Below are positions 1,898 to 27,222 of a stretch of DNA of 54,633 nucleotides, piece by piece (within the stretch, counting starts at the first letter, position 1; the number at the start of each line of letters is the position of its first letter). This DNA is from a virus (taxonomy: Duplodnaviria > Caudoviricetes): positions 1 through 54,633 of the IMG/VR virus record IMGVR_UViG_3300046171_000030; one strand, 5' to 3'. The notes under the pieces are model-generated. The model saw only the letters and a list, made by a program, of their open reading frames with translations, was not told the origin of the DNA and ran no database searches. Made by a program: the position numbers and the translations under genes.

Positions 1898-4036
1898 ATG
1901 AACGAAGATGAAATTATGATTGAAGACGATGCTATTGCACTAGAAGATAGTGACGATACTTCTATCTCTGACGTAGATGTAACTAATATTATTCCTTTTA
2001 TTATGGAACGCTATAAGCGGTCTGAAGATTATAGGTATCAGGACGAAGAACGCTGGCTTAAAGCCTACCGCAATTATCGTGGTTTATACGGACCTGATGT
2101 TCAATTTACCGAATCAGAAAAATCTCGTGTCTTTATTAAAGTCACAAAAACTAAAACGCTGGCTGCTTACGGACAAATTGTTGATGTCTTGTTTGCAAAC
2201 CAGCGTTTTCCTTTATCTGTCGAACCTACGGAGTTACCTGAAGGTGTGGTTGCTGATGTACACTTTGATCCACAGGAACCAGAGCAGCTTCGTGAAAGCC
2301 AAAATACAAGCCCTTATGGTTTTGCGGGTGATGGACAAGATTTACCGCCGGGTGCTACAGCACAAACACTACAAGAAAAACTTGGTGTTATGCAGAATAA
2401 ACTTGAGCCTATTTCTGATAAACTGAAAGAAGGGCCGGGTAAAACACCAACAGCTATTGCATTTAGCCCAGCTATGATTGCTGCAAAAAAGATGCAAAAG
2501 AAAATCCATGACCAGCTAGAAGAATCAGGTGCTACTAAACATCTGCGCAATGCTGCATTTGAAATGGCACTTTTTGGTACTGGTGTAATGAAAGGTCCGT
2601 TTGCCGTAGACAAAGAATATCCTAATTGGGATGAAGACGGTAACTATGATCCGCTGTTTAAAACAATCCCCCAAGTAAATCACGTATCTGTTTGGAACTT
2701 CTACCCAGATCCAGATGCAAACAACATGGATGAAGCACAGTTTGTGATTGAGCGTCACAAGATGTCACGGACGCAATTACGTAATTTGAAGAAGCGTCCA
2801 TACTTCCGTGGTGAAGTTATTAATGAAGTAATTGGCATGGGCGAAAACTATGTTAAAAAGTACTGGGAAGATGACTTGTCTGACTATGCACCAGAGCATG
2901 GTGTAGATCGTTTTGAGGTACTTGAGTATTGGGGCATGGTTGATGTTGAGTTGCTCGAAGAGCAGAACATTGACATTCCAAAAGAACTACGTGACTTTGA
3001 CGAACTACAAGCTAACGTATGGATTTGTAACGGACGTTTGTTGCGCATGGTGCTTAATCCATTTAAGCCATCTAAAATTCCATACTCTGCTTCTCCATAT
3101 GAGTTAAACCCATACTCATTCTTTGGCGTTGGTATCGCAGAAAACATGGACGATACGCAGACATTGATGAATGGCTTTATGCGTATGGCTGTTGATAATG
3201 CCGTACTGTCTGGCAACTTGATTGTGGAAGTAGATGAAACAAACCTAGTGCCGGGGCAAGACTTATCTCTATATCCGGGCAAGGTGTTCCGAAGACAAGG
3301 TGGCGCACCGGGTCAAGCTATCTTCGGTACTAAGTTCCCTAACGTATCGCAAGAAAACATGATGTTGTTTGACAAGGCACGTGTACTTGCAGATGAAAGC
3401 ACAGGCTTCCCATCATTTGCACATGGACAGACAGGTGTGTCTGGTGTAGGCCGTACTGCTAGTGGTATCTCAATGCTTATGGGTGCTGCGCAAGGTAGCA
3501 CTAAAACAATCATTAAAAATGTAGACGACTATTTATTACGTCCACTTGGTGAAGGCTTCTTCCGCTTTAATATGCAGTTTGACTTTGATCCTGAGATCAA
3601 GGGCGACTTGGAAGTTAAGGCACGTGGTACGGAAAGCCTAATGGCTAACGAAGTGCGTAGTCAGCGTTTGATGCAGTTCTTGCAGATTGCAAGTAATCCT
3701 GCACTCGCACCCTTTGCTAAGTTCCAGTATGTAATCCGTGAGATTGCAAAATCTATGGAACTAGACCCCGACAAAGTTACCAACAATATGGACGAAGCTG
3801 CACTGCAAGCAGAGATTATGAAGGGCTTCCAGCAGCCAATGCAACCAGAGCAAGGTGGAATGACACCACCACCGGGTGCTAATGCTATGGACCCAACAGG
3901 TGCAGGTGGTGGCAATATAGGTACTGGGCAGGTTCCTGTACCGGGTGAACAAGGATTTAGTGCGAATGGACAAGGAAATACTCAGCAAGCTGAAGCCGCT
4001 GGTGGGCAACAACCGCCAATGGGTCCACTTCAGTAA
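1898..4036 (+). CDS. Portal protein
   Basis: 712 aa right after TerL; FGTGVMKG, RTASGISML motifs typical of podovirus portals; RBS AAGGA upstream. Confidence 0.9.
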   Translation: MNEDEIMIEDDAIALEDSDDTSISDVDVTNIIPFIMERYKRSEDYRYQDEERWLKAYRNYRGLYGPDVQFTESEKSRVFIKVTKTKTLAAYGQIVDVLFANQRFPLSVEPTELPEGVVADVHFDPQEPEQLRESQNTSPYGFAGDGQDLPPGATAQTLQEKLGVMQNKLEPISDKLKEGPGKTPTAIAFSPAMIAAKKMQKKIHDQLEESGATKHLRNAAFEMALFGTGVMKGPFAVDKEYPNWDEDGNYDPLFKTIPQVNHVSVWNFYPDPDANNMDEAQFVIERHKMSRTQLRNLKKRPYFRGEVINEVIGMGENYVKKYWEDDLSDYAPEHGVDRFEVLEYWGMVDVELLEEQNIDIPKELRDFDELQANVWICNGRLLRMVLNPFKPSKIPYSASPYELNPYSFFGVGIAENMDDTQTLMNGFMRMAVDNAVLSGNLIVEVDETNLVPGQDLSLYPGKVFRRQGGAPGQAIFGTKFPNVSQENMMLFDKARVLADESTGFPSFAHGQTGVSGVGRTASGISMLMGAAQGSTKTIIKNVDDYLLRPLGEGFFRFNMQFDFDPEIKGDLEVKARGTESLMANEVRSQRLMQFLQIASNPALAPFAKFQYVIREIAKSMELDPDKVTNNMDEAALQAEIMKGFQQPMQPEQGGMTPPPGANAMDPTGAGGGNIGTGQVPVPGEQGFSANGQGNTQQAEAAGGQQPPMGPLQ

Positions 4037-4181
4037 TTACTTAGATGTGTTAATTGAGCAACATCATAAAACACTGGAACAGTCTGAAAACAAAATAACA
4101 TTACATAAGGCACAAGGTGCAATAGAAACATTGCGTAAGATTAAACGGTTACGTGAGGACGTATCAAAAGCTGAAGGATAA
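3966..4181 (+). CDS. Small hypothetical protein following portal
   Basis: ATG at 3966 after AAGGA; helical HKAQGAIETLRKIKRLRE segment. Confidence 0.65.
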   Translation: MDKEILSKLKPLVGNNRQWVHFSNYLDVLIEQHHKTLEQSENKITLHKAQGAIETLRKIKRLREDVSKAEG

Positions 4182-4185
4182 TACT

Positions 4186-6363
4186 ATGGCAAAACGTATG
4201 GCAAAACAAATGGAACTCTTTGAGCCTGTAGAACGTGGCTTTGATGAGGGTGGGCTTATGGAAGAAGGTGGTATGGTTGATGAGGTGTCTGGCAACGATG
4301 TACCGCCGGGATCACTGCGTACTGAAGTGCGTGATGACATTCCTGCTCAACTTAGCGAAGGTGAATTTGTTTTTCCTGCAGACGTAGTGCGTTATATTGG
4401 CCTTGAGAACTTGATGCGTATGCGTCAAGAAGCAAAGCAGGGCTTGGCACAGATGGAAGCTATGGGTCAGATGGGCAATAGTGAAGAAGCCACTATAGAA
4501 GATAATTTACCTTTTGACATGTATGACCTTGACGTAGATGATGAAGACGAGTATAATAATATGGCTGTAGGTGGTATGCCTACAAAAGACCAAACAAGAC
4601 AAGCCTTTCAATTAGGTGGAACTGTTCAGCTGCCCGGTTTTACAGGTGTGCAAACTACCCAACCAACTGCTCCAACTACAGGTTACAGACCTTATGTAGA
4701 ACCTGTACAAGCTGCTTCTAGTCAGTTTATTCCTCAGTTTACAGGTGTGCAGTATACTACAGCCACGGGAACAACCAATATTCCTACTTTCGCTGAAACT
4801 GTAGGTAGAAATCCCGGTCAGTATGATGAACTTAGAACATATGTAAATGATGCGGGGCAGATACTACGGATACCTTTTAAAAACGGTCAGCCTATTTATC
4901 CAATCCCATATGGCTATAAATACCAAGCAGAAGAAGCGGTAACACCAACAGATACAACTACAGTGCCTACAACGGTAGCTGGGCAAGATGATAGTGGCGG
5001 TGATGGTTCAGATGCAATATCTGGTAGAGTAGCAACAACACTAGGTACAAATCCTGCTATTGGTGTATCTGTACCTACGGGCGGTGCAGTCAGTCAAGCA
5101 GATAAAGATGCATTTGGTGGTAATGTTGGTGCTTATAAAAATACGGACTACCGTAGTGCCGTTATAGATTTAGCTGGTTATCAATTAGGTTCGTTATCTC
5201 CAACTGCGGCTCTAGCTAATCAAATGGGTAAAAATTTCGGATTAACACAATCCGGTAATTTTAATGAAATTGGCACAGCTATGAATCAAGCCCGTAATGA
5301 AGCATTGTCTGCATTAGGTCTTGCTAATATGGGACAAGTAACTACAGATGCGCAGTATTCTGCTATAGCAGATTCTATGATTGCCGCAAAAGAAGCAGCT
5401 AAAAAAGGTAATTTTGCTTACGCTACAGTAACTAGAGATGCATTAGCAAAACATCAAGATGCAATTAAAGCTGGTCAAGTTGCTGCGATGACGGAATTAG
5501 GATATAAGTCAACTGATATTAATAATCCTGTTGCAGTAGCGCGGGCTATGGCATCTTACGATACTCAGATAGGCCAATTAAGTGGAGAAATTGATGCTGC
5601 AACACAGTCTGGTGCTGTTACGTCAGCGGTAACCAATGAACCAGTAAGAGATAAAGACCAAAACCCTGTAATGACAGAAAAAGGACTTGCTAAAGTAAAT
5701 AACTTAAAAGAGATATTATCTGCTAAAAAGGCTAAAAAAGATTCATTGCTTTCAACGGAAGTAGGGAAAGCGGCAGCAGTATCGGCAGCGTTTGATGCGG
5801 CAGGTTATAATGAAGATGATGACCCCGGACAGAACGCACCTGCAGGTGGATACACAGGTAACGTGAGTGAAGACCCTGGATTTGACTCTGGTTTTTCAGA
5901 TGGCTCACAAGGTAGTGAATCTGGCGGCGGCTATGGCTCAGATAGTGGTGGCGTTGGTGGTGCAGGTGATATGGGCGTTATATGTCTAACTGAAGATATG
6001 AAAGTAAAATGCAACGGTATAGTTGACTTTGTAACCAGAGTACAAGTAGGTGACATCATAGACAACACAGTAGTTACAGAAGTATTACACAAGCATATGC
6101 GTGAAGGTTACTACAAAGTTAATGGCGAGTTGAAGATTACTAATGACCATCCTGTACTTGTTAACGGTTCATGGAAACGTACAGAAGACTTAGTGCTTGG
6201 CGACTACATTAATAATGTAGAAGTAACGTCACTTGAGTATGTAGAGCAAGTAACACCGACAGTTTATATTGGTACAGCGGATGACCGCTATGATGTGTAT
6301 ACAGAAGGTGAAGTCTACACAGTGCATGGACAATATAAAAATGCATTAAAGAAAGCTGCGTAA
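4186..6363 (+). CDS. Virion protein with N-terminal DDIPAQLSEGEFVF module, xxGG motifs and C-terminal Hint domain; candidate maturation protein
   Basis: Between portal and scaffold; ATG 4186 after AAGGA; Hint motifs CLTEDMKV, ITNDHPV, YTVH. Confidence 0.7.
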   Translation: MAKRMAKQMELFEPVERGFDEGGLMEEGGMVDEVSGNDVPPGSLRTEVRDDIPAQLSEGEFVFPADVVRYIGLENLMRMRQEAKQGLAQMEAMGQMGNSEEATIEDNLPFDMYDLDVDDEDEYNNMAVGGMPTKDQTRQAFQLGGTVQLPGFTGVQTTQPTAPTTGYRPYVEPVQAASSQFIPQFTGVQYTTATGTTNIPTFAETVGRNPGQYDELRTYVNDAGQILRIPFKNGQPIYPIPYGYKYQAEEAVTPTDTTTVPTTVAGQDDSGGDGSDAISGRVATTLGTNPAIGVSVPTGGAVSQADKDAFGGNVGAYKNTDYRSAVIDLAGYQLGSLSPTAALANQMGKNFGLTQSGNFNEIGTAMNQARNEALSALGLANMGQVTTDAQYSAIADSMIAAKEAAKKGNFAYATVTRDALAKHQDAIKAGQVAAMTELGYKSTDINNPVAVARAMASYDTQIGQLSGEIDAATQSGAVTSAVTNEPVRDKDQNPVMTEKGLAKVNNLKEILSAKKAKKDSLLSTEVGKAAAVSAAFDAAGYNEDDDPGQNAPAGGYTGNVSEDPGFDSGFSDGSQGSESGGGYGSDSGGVGGAGDMGVICLTEDMKVKCNGIVDFVTRVQVGDIIDNTVVTEVLHKHMREGYYKVNGELKITNDHPVLVNGSWKRTEDLVLGDYINNVEVTSLEYVEQVTPTVYIGTADDRYDVYTEGEVYTVHGQYKNALKKAA

Positions 6364-6388
6364 GAGGCTTACTTAAATCTTACAATTA

Positions 6389-6438
6389 GTTGGCTACTCA
6401 CTCCCCACGCCCGACAGTGTGGCTACAGTGGCCCCAAC
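6389..6438 (+). promoter_or_regulatory. Structured mRNA leader of scaffold gene (hairpin with two CUAC/CC internal loops)
   Basis: GUUGG-CUAC-UCACU-CC-CCACGC-loop-GUGUGG-CUAC-AGUGG-CC-CCAAC, immediately 5' of the AAGGA RBS. Confidence 0.65.
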
Positions 6439-6454
6439 AAAAGGAAATACAAAC

Positions 6455-7327
6455 ATGAACGATACAATTATGGCTGAAGAAATGCAGTCACCAAAGAAAG
6501 TTGCGTTTGCAAATCGTAAATACACTAACGAAGAAAAACGCAAGATGGAAGAAGAAGAATTAGAACAGTTGATGAAGGAACAAAAAGGTGAAGTAGAACA
6601 AGAAGCTGCTGAACCACAAGAAGCTGAACCTACAAACGCAGAAGAAAAAACATTTAAAAAGCGTTACTCTGACCTGCGCAGGCATCAACAGCAGCAAGCT
6701 GATGAGTTTAAGAAGGAAATTGAGGCATTAAAATCTCAACTAAGTCAGGCAGCACAGAAAGAAATGAAACTGCCTAAGTCTGACGAAGACATTGAACAGT
6801 GGGCGGCAGACTACCCAGATGTAGCAGCCATTGTTGAAACAATTGCAATGAAGAAAGCACGTGAACAAGCTACTGCGCTTGAAGAACGCTTTAAAGCAGT
6901 TGATGAGATGCAGTACAGTGCCAAGAAAGAAAAAGCTGAAGCTGAACTAATGCGACTGCATCCTGACTTTGATGAGATTCGTGACAGTGATGACTTCCAC
7001 AATTGGGCAGATGATCAACCTAAGTGGGTACAAGATGCACTGTATGACAATGACAATGATGCACGTTCCGCTGCTAGAGCAATTGATTTGTATAAGGCTG
7101 ACATGGGTATTGCTAAAAGCAAACCTGCTAAAGATAAAGATGCAGCTAAGTCAGTATCTACAAAGAACTCAAGAAGTAGGCCACAAGACGATGAGTCTTC
7201 GACTTACTTAAAGGAATCACAAGTACAAAAGATGTCACCTCAACAGTATGAGAAGATGTCTGACGAGATCATGGAAGCTATCCGTAGTGGTAAGTTTATC
7301 TATGATGTATCTGGCTCCGCTAGATAA
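6455..7327 (+). CDS. Capsid scaffolding protein
   Basis: Acidic coiled-coil protein directly upstream of MCP; FKKRYSDLRRH, HPDFDEI, C-terminal EIMEAIRSGK. Confidence 0.8.
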   Translation: MNDTIMAEEMQSPKKVAFANRKYTNEEKRKMEEEELEQLMKEQKGEVEQEAAEPQEAEPTNAEEKTFKKRYSDLRRHQQQQADEFKKEIEALKSQLSQAAQKEMKLPKSDEDIEQWAADYPDVAAIVETIAMKKAREQATALEERFKAVDEMQYSAKKEKAEAELMRLHPDFDEIRDSDDFHNWADDQPKWVQDALYDNDNDARSAARAIDLYKADMGIAKSKPAKDKDAAKSVSTKNSRSRPQDDESSTYLKESQVQKMSPQQYEKMSDEIMEAIRSGKFIYDVSGSAR

Positions 7328-7341
7328 TATATAAAAAAGTG

Positions 7342-7369
7342 TTGACAAATAGTTATTTTTACGTATAAC
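7342..7369 (+). promoter_or_regulatory. Sigma70-like promoter for capsid operon
   Basis: TTGACA-N16-TATAAC. Confidence 0.6.
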
Positions 7370-7382
7370 TATAGTCAGATTA

Positions 7383-7519
7383 GTGTAACTGTATTGCGCA
7401 ATATGGTTACACGACAATTCGCAAACAGCAAAGTCTTACGGATTACCTGAAGAACATGGCCCGTTGAATAGTAGGGCGGCCACCTTACTAAAATACGCAC
7501 CCAAGTGAATCAGCCTCTG
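7383..7519 (+). promoter_or_regulatory. Structured 5' leader of major capsid gene
   Basis: Hairpin 7383-7412 (with two G-U pairs) and long stem 7439-7519 with UUAC/CC and CC/CAC internal loops. Confidence 0.55.
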
Positions 7520-7573
7520 ATTAGTCTTGTGAGTTTGTATCTGTGAAATGCTATAAAATTAGGAGAAAATATC

Positions 7574-8635
7574 ATGGCTTTTACTACCGCAGCCGGGTAT
7601 GGTAACCTTCCTAACGGCAATTTTAGCCCAGTAATTTACAGCAAACAGGTGCAGCTTGCGTTCCGCAAGTCAGCTGTTGCTGAAGCTATCTCAAATTCCG
7701 ACTACTTCGGTGAGATTGCTAACATGGGCGATTCCGTGAAGATTATCAAGGAACCCGAAATCACAGTCAAGGCTTACGCCCGTGGTACAACCATCACGCC
7801 GCAAGACATTGACGATGAAGACTTCAACCTGACCATCGACAAAGCTAACTACTTTGCGTTCAAGGTTGATGACATTGAAGAGGCACACTCACACGTTAAC
7901 TTCCAGTCACTGGCAAGTGATCGTGCGGCGTATCGCCTTTCTGACCAGTTTGACCAAGATGTTCTTGGCTACTTGTCAGGTTACACTCAGTCTGCTTTAC
8001 ATGCAAATGCTGATACAGTAAACACAACTGTTAATGGTTCTGTAGCTGTTTCAACTGCTGGTACAGACGAATTGCTTGCCAGCATGAAGCTGGACGCAAC
8101 TGACTTTGCTGGCACAGGTGTTGCTGGTCAGTCAATCTCAATCCTGCCACGTACAGGTGCAGGTGCCGTTCCAACTGGTAACGGTGAAGCCAACCCACTT
8201 CAAATCGTTGCTCGTATGTCACGTCTGCTAGACCAGCAGAATGTAGACACACAAGGACGTTGGTTGGTTGTTGATCCTGTATTCATGGAAGTACTGAAAG
8301 ATGAAGATTCACGTCTTCTGGATGCAGACTTCGGTGGTTCAGGTCTGCAGAATGGTCTGGTGTTGAACAGCTTGCACGGCTTCCGTGTATACGTTTCAAA
8401 CAACCTGCCATCAATTGGTACTGGTGCTTCAACAACTGGTGGCATGAACGCTGATAACTTTGGCGTAATTGTTGCTGGTCATGATTCAGCTGTTGCTACT
8501 GCAGAGCAGATCAACAAGACTGAAACTTACCGTGACCCTGACAGCTTTGCTGACATTGTTCGTGGTATGCATTTGTATGGTCGCAAGATTCTTCGTCCTG
8601 AAGGTCTTGTTAACGCCATCTACAACTTGGCTTAA
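7574..8635 (+). CDS. Major capsid protein
   Basis: 353 aa after scaffold; AGGAG RBS; GDSVKIIKEP, FAFKVDDIE, DIVRGMHLYG motifs of podovirus coat proteins. Confidence 0.93.
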   Translation: MAFTTAAGYGNLPNGNFSPVIYSKQVQLAFRKSAVAEAISNSDYFGEIANMGDSVKIIKEPEITVKAYARGTTITPQDIDDEDFNLTIDKANYFAFKVDDIEEAHSHVNFQSLASDRAAYRLSDQFDQDVLGYLSGYTQSALHANADTVNTTVNGSVAVSTAGTDELLASMKLDATDFAGTGVAGQSISILPRTGAGAVPTGNGEANPLQIVARMSRLLDQQNVDTQGRWLVVDPVFMEVLKDEDSRLLDADFGGSGLQNGLVLNSLHGFRVYVSNNLPSIGTGASTTGGMNADNFGVIVAGHDSAVATAEQINKTETYRDPDSFADIVRGMHLYGRKILRPEGLVNAIYNLA

Positions 8636-26657: not shown

Positions 26658-27032
26658 CTACCTGTTATCCCCACTACCACCTAGCTTACCTCTGGCTTGT
26701 CTATCTGCCAGCTTCTCAATATTATCTTCCATAACCTTGCCTAGATTAACACCTAGTTCTCGTGACAGTACAGCTATGTACCAGCATACGTCACCTAGTT
26801 CCTTTGTAATCTCTGCACGTTTAGCTGGGTTATCACCATCACGTATTAGCTTCTTAGCCTTGTTAGCAATCTCACCTGCCTCACCCGCCAGTCCTAACGT
26901 CAAGTACGCTAGGGCTGTTTCTTTTGGAAAGATAGCTGTGCTACAAGCTTTGTGTTGGTAGTCTGCTGCTGTAATGCTACTCATTTGTTTCTCCTTCATC
27001 CACTGTTTAACTTCCTGCTCTAGCTTTTTCAT
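26658..27032 (-). CDS. mazG: MazG-like nucleotide pyrophosphohydrolase
   Basis: GLAGEAGE and KELGDVCWY motifs. Confidence 0.88.
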   Translation of the reverse strand: MKKLEQEVKQWMKEKQMSSITAADYQHKACSTAIFPKETALAYLTLGLAGEAGEIANKAKKLIRDGDNPAKRAEITKELGDVCWYIAVLSRELGVNLGKVMEDNIEKLADRQARGKLGGSGDNR

Positions 27033-27222
27033 TACGTTGTACCTTCTGTAGATTCACATGATAGGCAGTGTTCCAACCTCTATGCCACTCCCTTGCTTGC
27101 ATTGTATTTGAATCAATTGGGCAGGTCAGTCTACCTTTCCTAAAGGCTTCCTGACCCCACTCAAATTGAATACGTAATGGTGCATCATACTTACTCAGTC
27201 CATTACGCCGCACTGTCTTCAC
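27007..27222 (-). CDS. Hypothetical protein
   Basis: 71 aa; G.EAF..G...CP and EW.RGW pattern. Confidence 0.55.
   Translation of the reverse strand: MKTVRRNGLSKYDAPLRIQFEWGQEAFRKGRLTCPIDSNTMQAREWHRGWNTAYHVNLQKVQRNEKARAGS

Follow-up and report, generated by a model that had tools for sequence, protein, structure and literature searches.

We found that positions 6389-6438 of the viral DNA studied here formed a real and conserved RNA structure of the + strand, which matched no catalogued RNA family (Rfam 15). The element occupied a fixed position, preceding the ribosome site of a gene that lay between the portal and the major capsid genes; it was unique in its genome, and its internal-loop unit was used in a modular way among related phages. 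Our leading, still tentative interpretation of these sequence patterns was that a trans-acting factor may recognise the element and control translation of the scaffold. Below, the window means the whole stretch of DNA that was analysed, a nearly complete linear virus record of 54,633 bases (CheckV 99%).

By its sequence, the window was the genome of an HMO-2011-type podophage; its scaffold-capsid region had 82% identity to Puniceispirillum phage HMO-2011 and resembled, more distantly, the same region of Roseobacter CRP phages, one pelagiphage and Rhizobium phages. The genes around the element were arranged as follows.

1898-4036: portal gene, 5' of the scaffold-position gene
4153-6363: open reading frame of 736 aa between the portal gene and the scaffold-position gene, with no PHROG or Pfam match
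6455..7327, + strand: scaffold-position gene (290 aa), between portal and capsid, with its ATG at 6455
7574-8635: major capsid gene

The interval between the portal and the scaffold-position genes differed among relatives, with HMO-2011, CRP-1 and CRP-345 carrying other or extra small genes. A Pfam scan of the 76 open reading frames of the window revealed neither an RNA polymerase nor any recognisable RNA-binding protein. One frame of 71 aa (27007-27222, - strand) had a weak, sub-threshold match to the ribosome modulation factor (PF04957, 19.8 bits vs a cut-off of 27.9).

The preliminary description of this DNA had claimed three stems of 5, 5 and 6 bp separated by two identical internal loops, CUAC opposite CC, and the sequence at 6389-6438 indeed read so: GUUGG-CUAC-UCACU-CC-CCACGC-CCGACA-GUGUGG-CUAC-AGUGG-CC-CCAAC. 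Stem 1 had 5 bp, stem 2 had 5 bp including one U-G pair, and stem 3 had 6 bp including one G-U pair and was closed by the hexaloop CCGACA. The two-fold symmetry that had also been claimed was present in the window, with an axis through stem 2 relating both CUAC/CC loops. The hairpin was located beside the scaffold ribosome binding site, as described, but the distance of 3-4 nt given to AAGGA had to be corrected, since it was 2 nt to AAGGA and 4 nt to GGA. There were 16 nt from the hairpin end to the ATG (6455). The leader was composed of the following parts.

6381..6388, + strand: A/U-rich 5' flank (UACAAUUA), from the leader sequences
6389..6393, + strand: stem 1, 5' strand GUUGG, pairing with 6434-6438
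6394..6397, + strand: proximal internal loop, long strand CUAC, unchanged throughout the homology-based set
6398..6402, + strand: stem 2, 5' strand UCACU, pairing with 6427-6431
6403..6404, + strand: distal internal loop, short strand CC, an invariant C run
6405..6422, + strand: stem 3 (CCACGC/GUGUGG) with the hexaloop CCGACA, variable in length
6423..6426, + strand: distal internal loop, long strand CUAC, invariant
6427..6431, + strand: stem 2, 3' strand AGUGG
6432..6433, + strand: proximal internal loop, short strand CC, invariant
6434..6438, + strand: stem 1, 3' strand CCAAC
6441..6445, + strand: Shine-Dalgarno (SD) sequence AAGGA, 2 nt 3' of the hairpin

A CAYAAY-like hexamer 5 nt 5' of the GG was recurrent in full and single-unit leaders. 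The flank at 6381..6388 was also considered as a promoter and rejected, as it lacked a sigma-70 consensus. Machine calling of open reading frames pushed the scaffold frame into the hairpin (GTG at 6419; window 6419-6454). Similarly, the annotated ATG of CRP-345 (L083, 1114) fell within the element, being the AUG of AAUGGCUAC; since this start codon sat inside the element, the annotated scaffold start of CRP-345 was probably wrong. Annotators should therefore be warned that gene callers extend the scaffold frame into the hairpin.

The single-sequence case for the two-loop fold was weak. The minimum free energy of the hairpin alone was -17.6 kcal/mol (z -1.86, with 10 of 200 shuffles folding as well), and it belonged to a different register, GGCUACU/AGUGGCC; the two-loop fold had -15.7 kcal/mol, which was 1.9 kcal/mol worse. 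Overall, the hairpins of the window and its relatives had z values between +0.6 and -2.3 and were thermodynamically unremarkable. We accepted the two-loop fold over the minimum-energy register because comparative covariation favoured the former and rejected the latter. Namely, the covariation among related leaders, which the preliminary description had proposed as a check, was clearly present: in 79 distinct leaders, 95.4% of cells were paired and 9 of 14 pairs were changed on both sides. The two-sided changes occupied 141 cells, none of 500 shuffles reached any of these measures, and the slid controls did not exceed 25 such cells. The 79-row set was derived with a model (R2) that aligned 80 matches from 81 sources, the source L169 having missed the E threshold. 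A set of 32 distinct homology-derived variants had 97.4% of cells paired and compensatory changes at 7 of 16 pairs, with none in the slid controls. In the minimum-energy register, by contrast, none of the seven outer pairs was compensatory, and 18 and 23 of the 79 cells were unpaired at two positions. Another candidate fold, produced by RNAalifold from a plain MAFFT alignment, paired both invariant UGGCUA copies without covariation and was judged to be an artefact of misaligned stems.

Individual parts of the hairpin varied to different degrees. The outer two pairs of stem 1 covaried in the 79 leaders (GC/AU/UA and UA/CG/AU), and both loop-adjacent G-C pairs were unchanged in 79 of 79; GUUGG/CCAAC was replaced in relatives by ACUGG/CCAGU, AUGG/CCAU or UAAGG/CCUUA. 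In stem 2, 98% of cells were paired and 4 of 5 pairs were compensatory in the same leaders, with the variants UUAUC/GAUAA, CUAUG/CAUAG, UAAUC/GGUUG and CUAAUC/GGUUGG, and the length shifted from 5 to 6 nt on both strands in step. Stem 3 spanned 2-7 bp in relatives; its two loop-adjacent C-G pairs were invariant, the next two pairs covaried, and the hexaloop sequence varied freely. The presence of many U-G pairs meant that only the + (sense) strand of the scaffold gene fitted. As for the loops, UGGCUAC (twice) and CCC (twice) were invariant in 36 leaders found via protein homology, where stems 1-3 varied freely. The loop invariance rests on such homology-derived sets, in alignments that were themselves fitted to the model; in alignment A5, where 61 of 80 sequences were pattern-selected on GGCTAC and CCCC, it was present by construction. 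Rare variants of the CUAC strand were CCUAC, CUUAC, CCAC and AUAC. Thus, the stems varied by compensation while the loop nucleotides stayed, which is a pattern suggestive of a recognition site.

The strict descriptor of the unit (GG-CUAC, a helix of at least 4 bp, CC-CC), applied to both strands of the 54.6-kb genome, identified the two units of the hairpin and no others, while 300 mononucleotide shuffles contained 0.15 units on average, with at least two units in 5 of the 300. Additionally, a covariance model of the two-loop fold (R1) had one match in the window, at 85.5 bits. A search of the whole window against Rfam 15 at gathering scores gave no matches, and a search of 6300-6520 at E up to 10 returned a single match, to the model of a tombusvirus 3' UTR, which was due to chance (10.9 bits vs a threshold of 33).

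Relatives of the element were found from the protein side as well as from the RNA side. With the 290-aa protein as the query, viral contigs yielded 80 loci of 76-100% identity. One copy of the element, and no more, was located upstream of the scaffold-position gene in 80 of 86 sources, which included these loci, four cultured relatives and HMO-2011. The six sources without a full element were five truncated contigs and CRP-603, which had a single-unit form. Since the homology with HMO-2011 started at window position 6383 and the genes upstream were different, the element travelled with the scaffold gene and not with the preceding gene. Scanning viral contigs with a sequence pattern gave at least 120 matches, and the DNA of 80 loci was examined. 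A scaffold-like open reading frame began 12-22 nt 3' of the element in 72 of them; the other loci were four chance tandem repeats and four unscored cases (truncation or choice of ATG). Each genome had one copy of the element.

Phages of SAR116, Roseobacter, SAR11 and Rhizobium retained the unit, as did one freshwater phage. As judged from these sequences, the element belonged to a large group of alphaproteobacterial phages, which came from the sea, from fresh water and from soil. A BLAST search of the 63-nt element against cultured phages returned only HMO-2011, one freshwater phage and chance matches in mycobacteriophage genes. In a two-unit scan of bacterial and archaeal genomes, one true hairpin with an SD sequence and ATG was present among the 120 matches listed, and the remaining ones of these 120 were tandem repeats in G+C-rich genomes; there was no host copy of the element among them. 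The true hairpin was located on a 62.8-kb contig (L312) of a marine MAG, which probably represented either a prophage or phage DNA that had been binned with the MAG.

Comparison of the different forms indicated that the working brick was one internal-loop unit, GG-CUAC-helix / helix-CC-CC. The CRP-603 protein, used as a query, gave 80 loci (81 with CRP-603 included), and 71 of these 81 had a single unit of the form AUAAGG-CUAC-(5-bp helix)-CC-CCAAC, then AUAAGGAG, with a helix that was often UUCG- or UACG-capped. These single-unit forms had just 2+5 bp; their helix was 100% paired in 18 distinct sequences, and 2 of its 5 pairs were compensatory. The remaining loci of this clade were five nested forms, one head-to-tail form (L160) and four truncated ones. 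In the head-to-tail form, located at 738-775 of an IMG/VR contig, both CUAC loops were on the 3' strand, and this was the sole contig of its kind seen. At the equivalent place, CRP-3 and Rhizobium phage RHph_N3_19 had nested forms, CRP-738 had a single unit with the loops AUAC/AC, and pelagiphage HTVC115P had two separate (tandem) hairpins. The existence of single, tandem and head-to-tail forms meant that two-fold symmetry was the commonest arrangement in the lineage and was not required; in the window, it arose because two units sat back to back on one 5-bp helix. It had been proposed earlier that the hairpin was an operator for a dimeric protein. The conserved RNA at the ribosome binding site agreed with this proposal, but the notion of an obligate two-fold site was weakened by the same three forms.

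The distance between the unit and the start codon was also conserved. A script found the unit, an ATG and the motif FK.RY.DLRRH in 250 of 284 sources, a set that was not de-duplicated and included a few regex artefacts. In these 250 sources, the terminal CCCC was 8-25 nt from the ATG (16 nt in 59 cases, 17 nt in 69 and 18 nt in 47), and the SD core began 1-9 nt past the CCCC, with 17 sources having no clear GGA. Stem 1 adjoined or overlapped the SD sequence in some variants. Both the SD sequence and the AUG were unpaired in the predicted fold of 6350-6480. The hairpin therefore had the placement by which translational operators are recognised, i.e., a structure adjoining the SD sequence or the start codon. 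Translational control was the most economical reading because the element abutted the ribosome binding site of the scaffold-position gene.

With respect to transcription, a consensus scan of 5900-7700 for -35 and -10 hexamers spaced by 16-18 nt revealed no sigma-70 promoter. An intrinsic terminator was considered and rejected as well: there was no terminator-like site at 6389-6450, and the 3' flank was A-rich and not a U run. The phage had a promoter class of its own, TTGACA-N15-18-TAHAAY (mostly TATAAC), with 9 sites vs 0.5 expected.

7342-7369, 11329, 32721-, 39595-, 47081, 47091, 47300, 52436, 53868: sites of this promoter class

The site at 7342-7369 directly preceded the capsid leader and was almost invariant in 70 related leaders. 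None of the nine sites preceded the scaffold gene, and it was therefore probably located on a long transcript with the terminase and portal genes. The RNA data consisted of assembled contigs (four runs), which covered ~6370 onward and nothing in 5900-6369; they were uninformative on the transcript start, since contigs hide ends and the upstream gene was not conserved in relatives.

The capsid leader downstream of this promoter (7370-7573, ~200 nt) folded well (z -2.43) and had long invariant blocks in relatives. It contained a candidate for a second use of the unit.

7439..7519, + strand: tentative related unit CGGA-UUAC-CUGA ... UCAG-CC-UCUG, a match to a relaxed descriptor

In 70 distinct leaders, conservation of both sequence blocks of this unit was 90% or more. 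Its inner helix had a compensatory CUAA/UUAG in CRP-1 (L082) and an IMG/VR relative (L046), extending to CUAAU/AUUAG in CRP-1, and the loop of the CRP-603 capsid leader was CUAC/CC. Compensation was seen at one of six pairs and most positions never varied, so covariation lent this unit weak support. The loop was about 55-135 nt from the capsid ATG, and simple SD occlusion was therefore insufficient as a mechanism for the capsid leader. As a partly confirmed lead from these sequences, one factor may read both head-gene messages. Moreover, the location of a related UUAC/CC loop in the capsid leader disfavoured a purely autogenous scaffold circuit.

In PHROG, the 290-aa protein matched phrog_13678 and, less strongly, phrog_479, both of them families of unknown function, and no others; it had no Pfam match. 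An AlphaFold model (from a 14-sequence alignment, mean pLDDT 73) was all-helical and elongated, with two very long helices. Against the PDB, a profile search gave only coiled-coil noise and Foldseek gave nothing at E below 1; no RNA-binding domain was detected in the protein by Pfam, PHROG, the PDB profile or Foldseek. Its position, size and predicted shape were consistent with a scaffolding protein, which it may be. Between the nested-form and the single-unit clades, EEKTFKKRYSDLRRH and EKAEAEL..HPDF..IR..FH.WA..QPKWVQDALY (residues 63-77 and 159-219) were nearly invariant. The proteins of the two clades had 51-56% identity overall, and the conservation of these motifs was unusually strong for a scaffold.

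Our preferred, though tentative, interpretation was that the element may act as a translational operator. The recognised unit would be a helix ending in two G-C pairs, followed by CUAC opposite CC and then by a helix of free sequence, and its binder would be a trans-acting factor, most probably a protein, which may be dimeric or oligomeric. The free RNA would keep the ribosome site open. Since 0-6 nt separate the end of the proximal unit from the SD sequence, the bound factor would hinder the 30S subunit and lower scaffold translation. Here, we infer that a factor binds, which factor it may be and in which direction it acts. The factor might be unassembled scaffold, providing feedback as in phage P22, or alternatively another head-assembly protein that would also bind the capsid-leader loop. 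By analogy, the scaffold protein was the natural candidate and a possible binder.

The analogy in question was that the gene downstream of the element, like gene 8 of P22, was a head-scaffold-position gene beside the portal and coat genes. In the available portions of the P22 literature, control of the scaffold was described as post-transcriptional and dependent on free scaffold, with the N-terminus implicated, and the scaffold protein was described as forming dimers. The autoregulation work was reportedly done in 1985 by Wyckoff and Casjens and by Casjens and Adams, and we know of no RNA target site defined for it. However, the P22 genome had no comparable leader: the portal stop was at 3879 and the gene 8 start at 3893. 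Because this portal-scaffold gap was just 13 nt, the analogy was functional only. Furthermore, no similarity of the 290-aa protein to the P22 scaffold was detected by the PDB profile search or Foldseek, and the window phage, unlike P22, had a related loop in the capsid leader too.

Other phage systems provided more structural parallels. The T4 gene 32 leader, the gene 43 hairpin and the RegA sites are translational operators bound by a phage protein, and in the case of genes 32 and 43 the repressing binder is the gene's own product. The element resembled them as a structured RNA in a phage gene leader, directly 5' of the ribosome site, but the sequences and folds were unrelated, and where they rely on a pseudoknot or an apical loop, it had a repeated internal-loop unit. 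The operators of MS2 and PP7 are small hairpins bound by a dimeric coat protein, which couples translation to assembly. Our element was likewise a small hairpin whose unpaired nucleotides were invariant and whose stems were free to vary. Unlike these operators, which have the start codon inside, a bulged A and an apical loop, it had 4x2 internal loops upstream of the SD sequence and belonged to a dsDNA phage. Searches of the literature on HMO-2011, P22 scaffold autoregulation and phage scaffold translational repression gave no title or abstract opening that pointed to the hairpin.

The internal loop itself was comparable to the C-loop. According to the accessible text of two sources (bioRxiv 10.1101/2021.12.02.470923; PMC4551918), C-loops are asymmetric, with a long strand that is usually C-first and 0-2 extra nt on the short strand; they often occur in hairpins and can be protein sites, e.g., for Virp1 on a viroid. 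CUAC opposite CC showed this asymmetry, but the C-loop core in the same text had three unpaired long-strand nucleotides (e.g., CAA), and the CUAC/CC loop had four. In a C-loop, two bases of the long strand also make non-Watson-Crick pairs and triples with the flanking pairs. We regard the likeness suggested by these sequences as a lead only.

The alternative that survived best, which we nevertheless considered unlikely, was that the hairpin is an element of mRNA processing or stability: cleavage in the A/U-rich stretch 5' of the hairpin would place the hairpin at a new 5' end, where it would shield the message from 5'-dependent decay and raise the output of scaffold, or of scaffold and capsid. 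Hairpins at the 5' terminus can stabilise bacterial mRNA, and the scaffold gene probably shares a long late transcript with the terminase and portal genes, whose products are needed in far smaller amounts. A processed 5' end would also agree with the lack of a sigma-70-type promoter before the scaffold gene in a phage whose own promoter class has its 9 sites elsewhere, with the conserved A/U-rich flank directly 5' of stem 1, and with the free SD sequence in the predicted fold. However, merely a stable stem would be needed for this purpose, whereas the stems here were short, some z values were near 0, and selection acted on the unpaired CUAC/CC. In addition, the single-unit forms, with just 2+5 bp, would make poor stabilisers.

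Rather improbable was a translation element made of RNA only, i.e., an insulator or a standby or enhancer platform touching the ribosome, with no regulator involved. The location of the element immediately 5' of the unpaired SD sequence at a nearly fixed distance, in front of a gene whose product is needed in many copies, would be natural for such a device, and the Pfam scan of the phage frames offered no candidate binder. But an insulator would leave the invariant loop letters across phages of such distant hosts as SAR11, Roseobacter and Rhizobium unexplained, as well as the reuse of the loop far from the SD sequence in the capsid leader.

A site for RNase III, of the type found between T7 late genes, was very unlikely, even though a dimeric nuclease would account for the symmetry. 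The full form stacks ~16 bp and, with its two internal loops, approaches two helical turns, and T7 RNase III sites also carry internal loops. Against this, the 2+5 bp of 71 of the 81 CRP-603-clade loci and the stem 3 of 2-3 bp in many full forms were too short, and conservation was found in the loop letters and not in the helix length.

We gave hardly any weight to an aptamer for a small ligand or ion, in which two minimal internal-loop copies would sit beside the SD-proximal helix. The invariant unpaired nucleotides, the duplication of a small unit and the variants in which stem 1 adjoined or overlapped the SD sequence would suit it. Yet there was no expression platform, since the SD sequence was unsequestered in either state; the unit had only 6 unpaired nucleotides, Rfam contained no riboswitch match, and a gene of the head-scaffold class offers no metabolic logic for a sensor. 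The least probable and disfavoured alternative was a DNA-level site, with the two exact TGGCTAC copies 29 bp apart being direct repeats bound by a DNA-binding protein, or a promoter, which was contradicted by the compensatory helices, by the many G-U pairs that are A-C mismatches on the other strand, by a repeat spacing that varied from ~20 to 40 nt, and by the lack of a promoter consensus.

Returning to the operator, we considered a bolder version of it, which was doubtful in our estimate, ranking below the stability element and just above an RNA-only device. In this version, the YUAC/CC unit would be the address label of one head-assembly sensor that ties the translation of scaffold and capsid to procapsid assembly. 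The sensor could be free scaffold or a complex of scaffold with coat or portal, and the message might be a start site for assembly.

HMO-2011-type phages are reported to be among the most abundant phages in the sea. To our knowledge, the way in which the scaffold:capsid ratio is set in dsDNA phages is poorly understood, and the genetics of P22 scaffold autoregulation has been available for decades, apparently without a defined RNA site. The element described here was a compact, uncatalogued RNA motif, proven by covariation, with a clear minimal unit and natural variants, and cultured systems exist in which it can be tested (HMO-2011/IMCC1322 and the CRP Roseobacter phages). Its CUAC/CC unit was a candidate for a new internal-loop recognition motif in the RNA repertoire. 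If the reading as a head-assembly sensor were true, the element would be the first defined RNA target for feedback of the scaffold type, a question open since the 1985 work on P22, and the translation of both proteins would be coupled to assembly in a very abundant group of marine phages.
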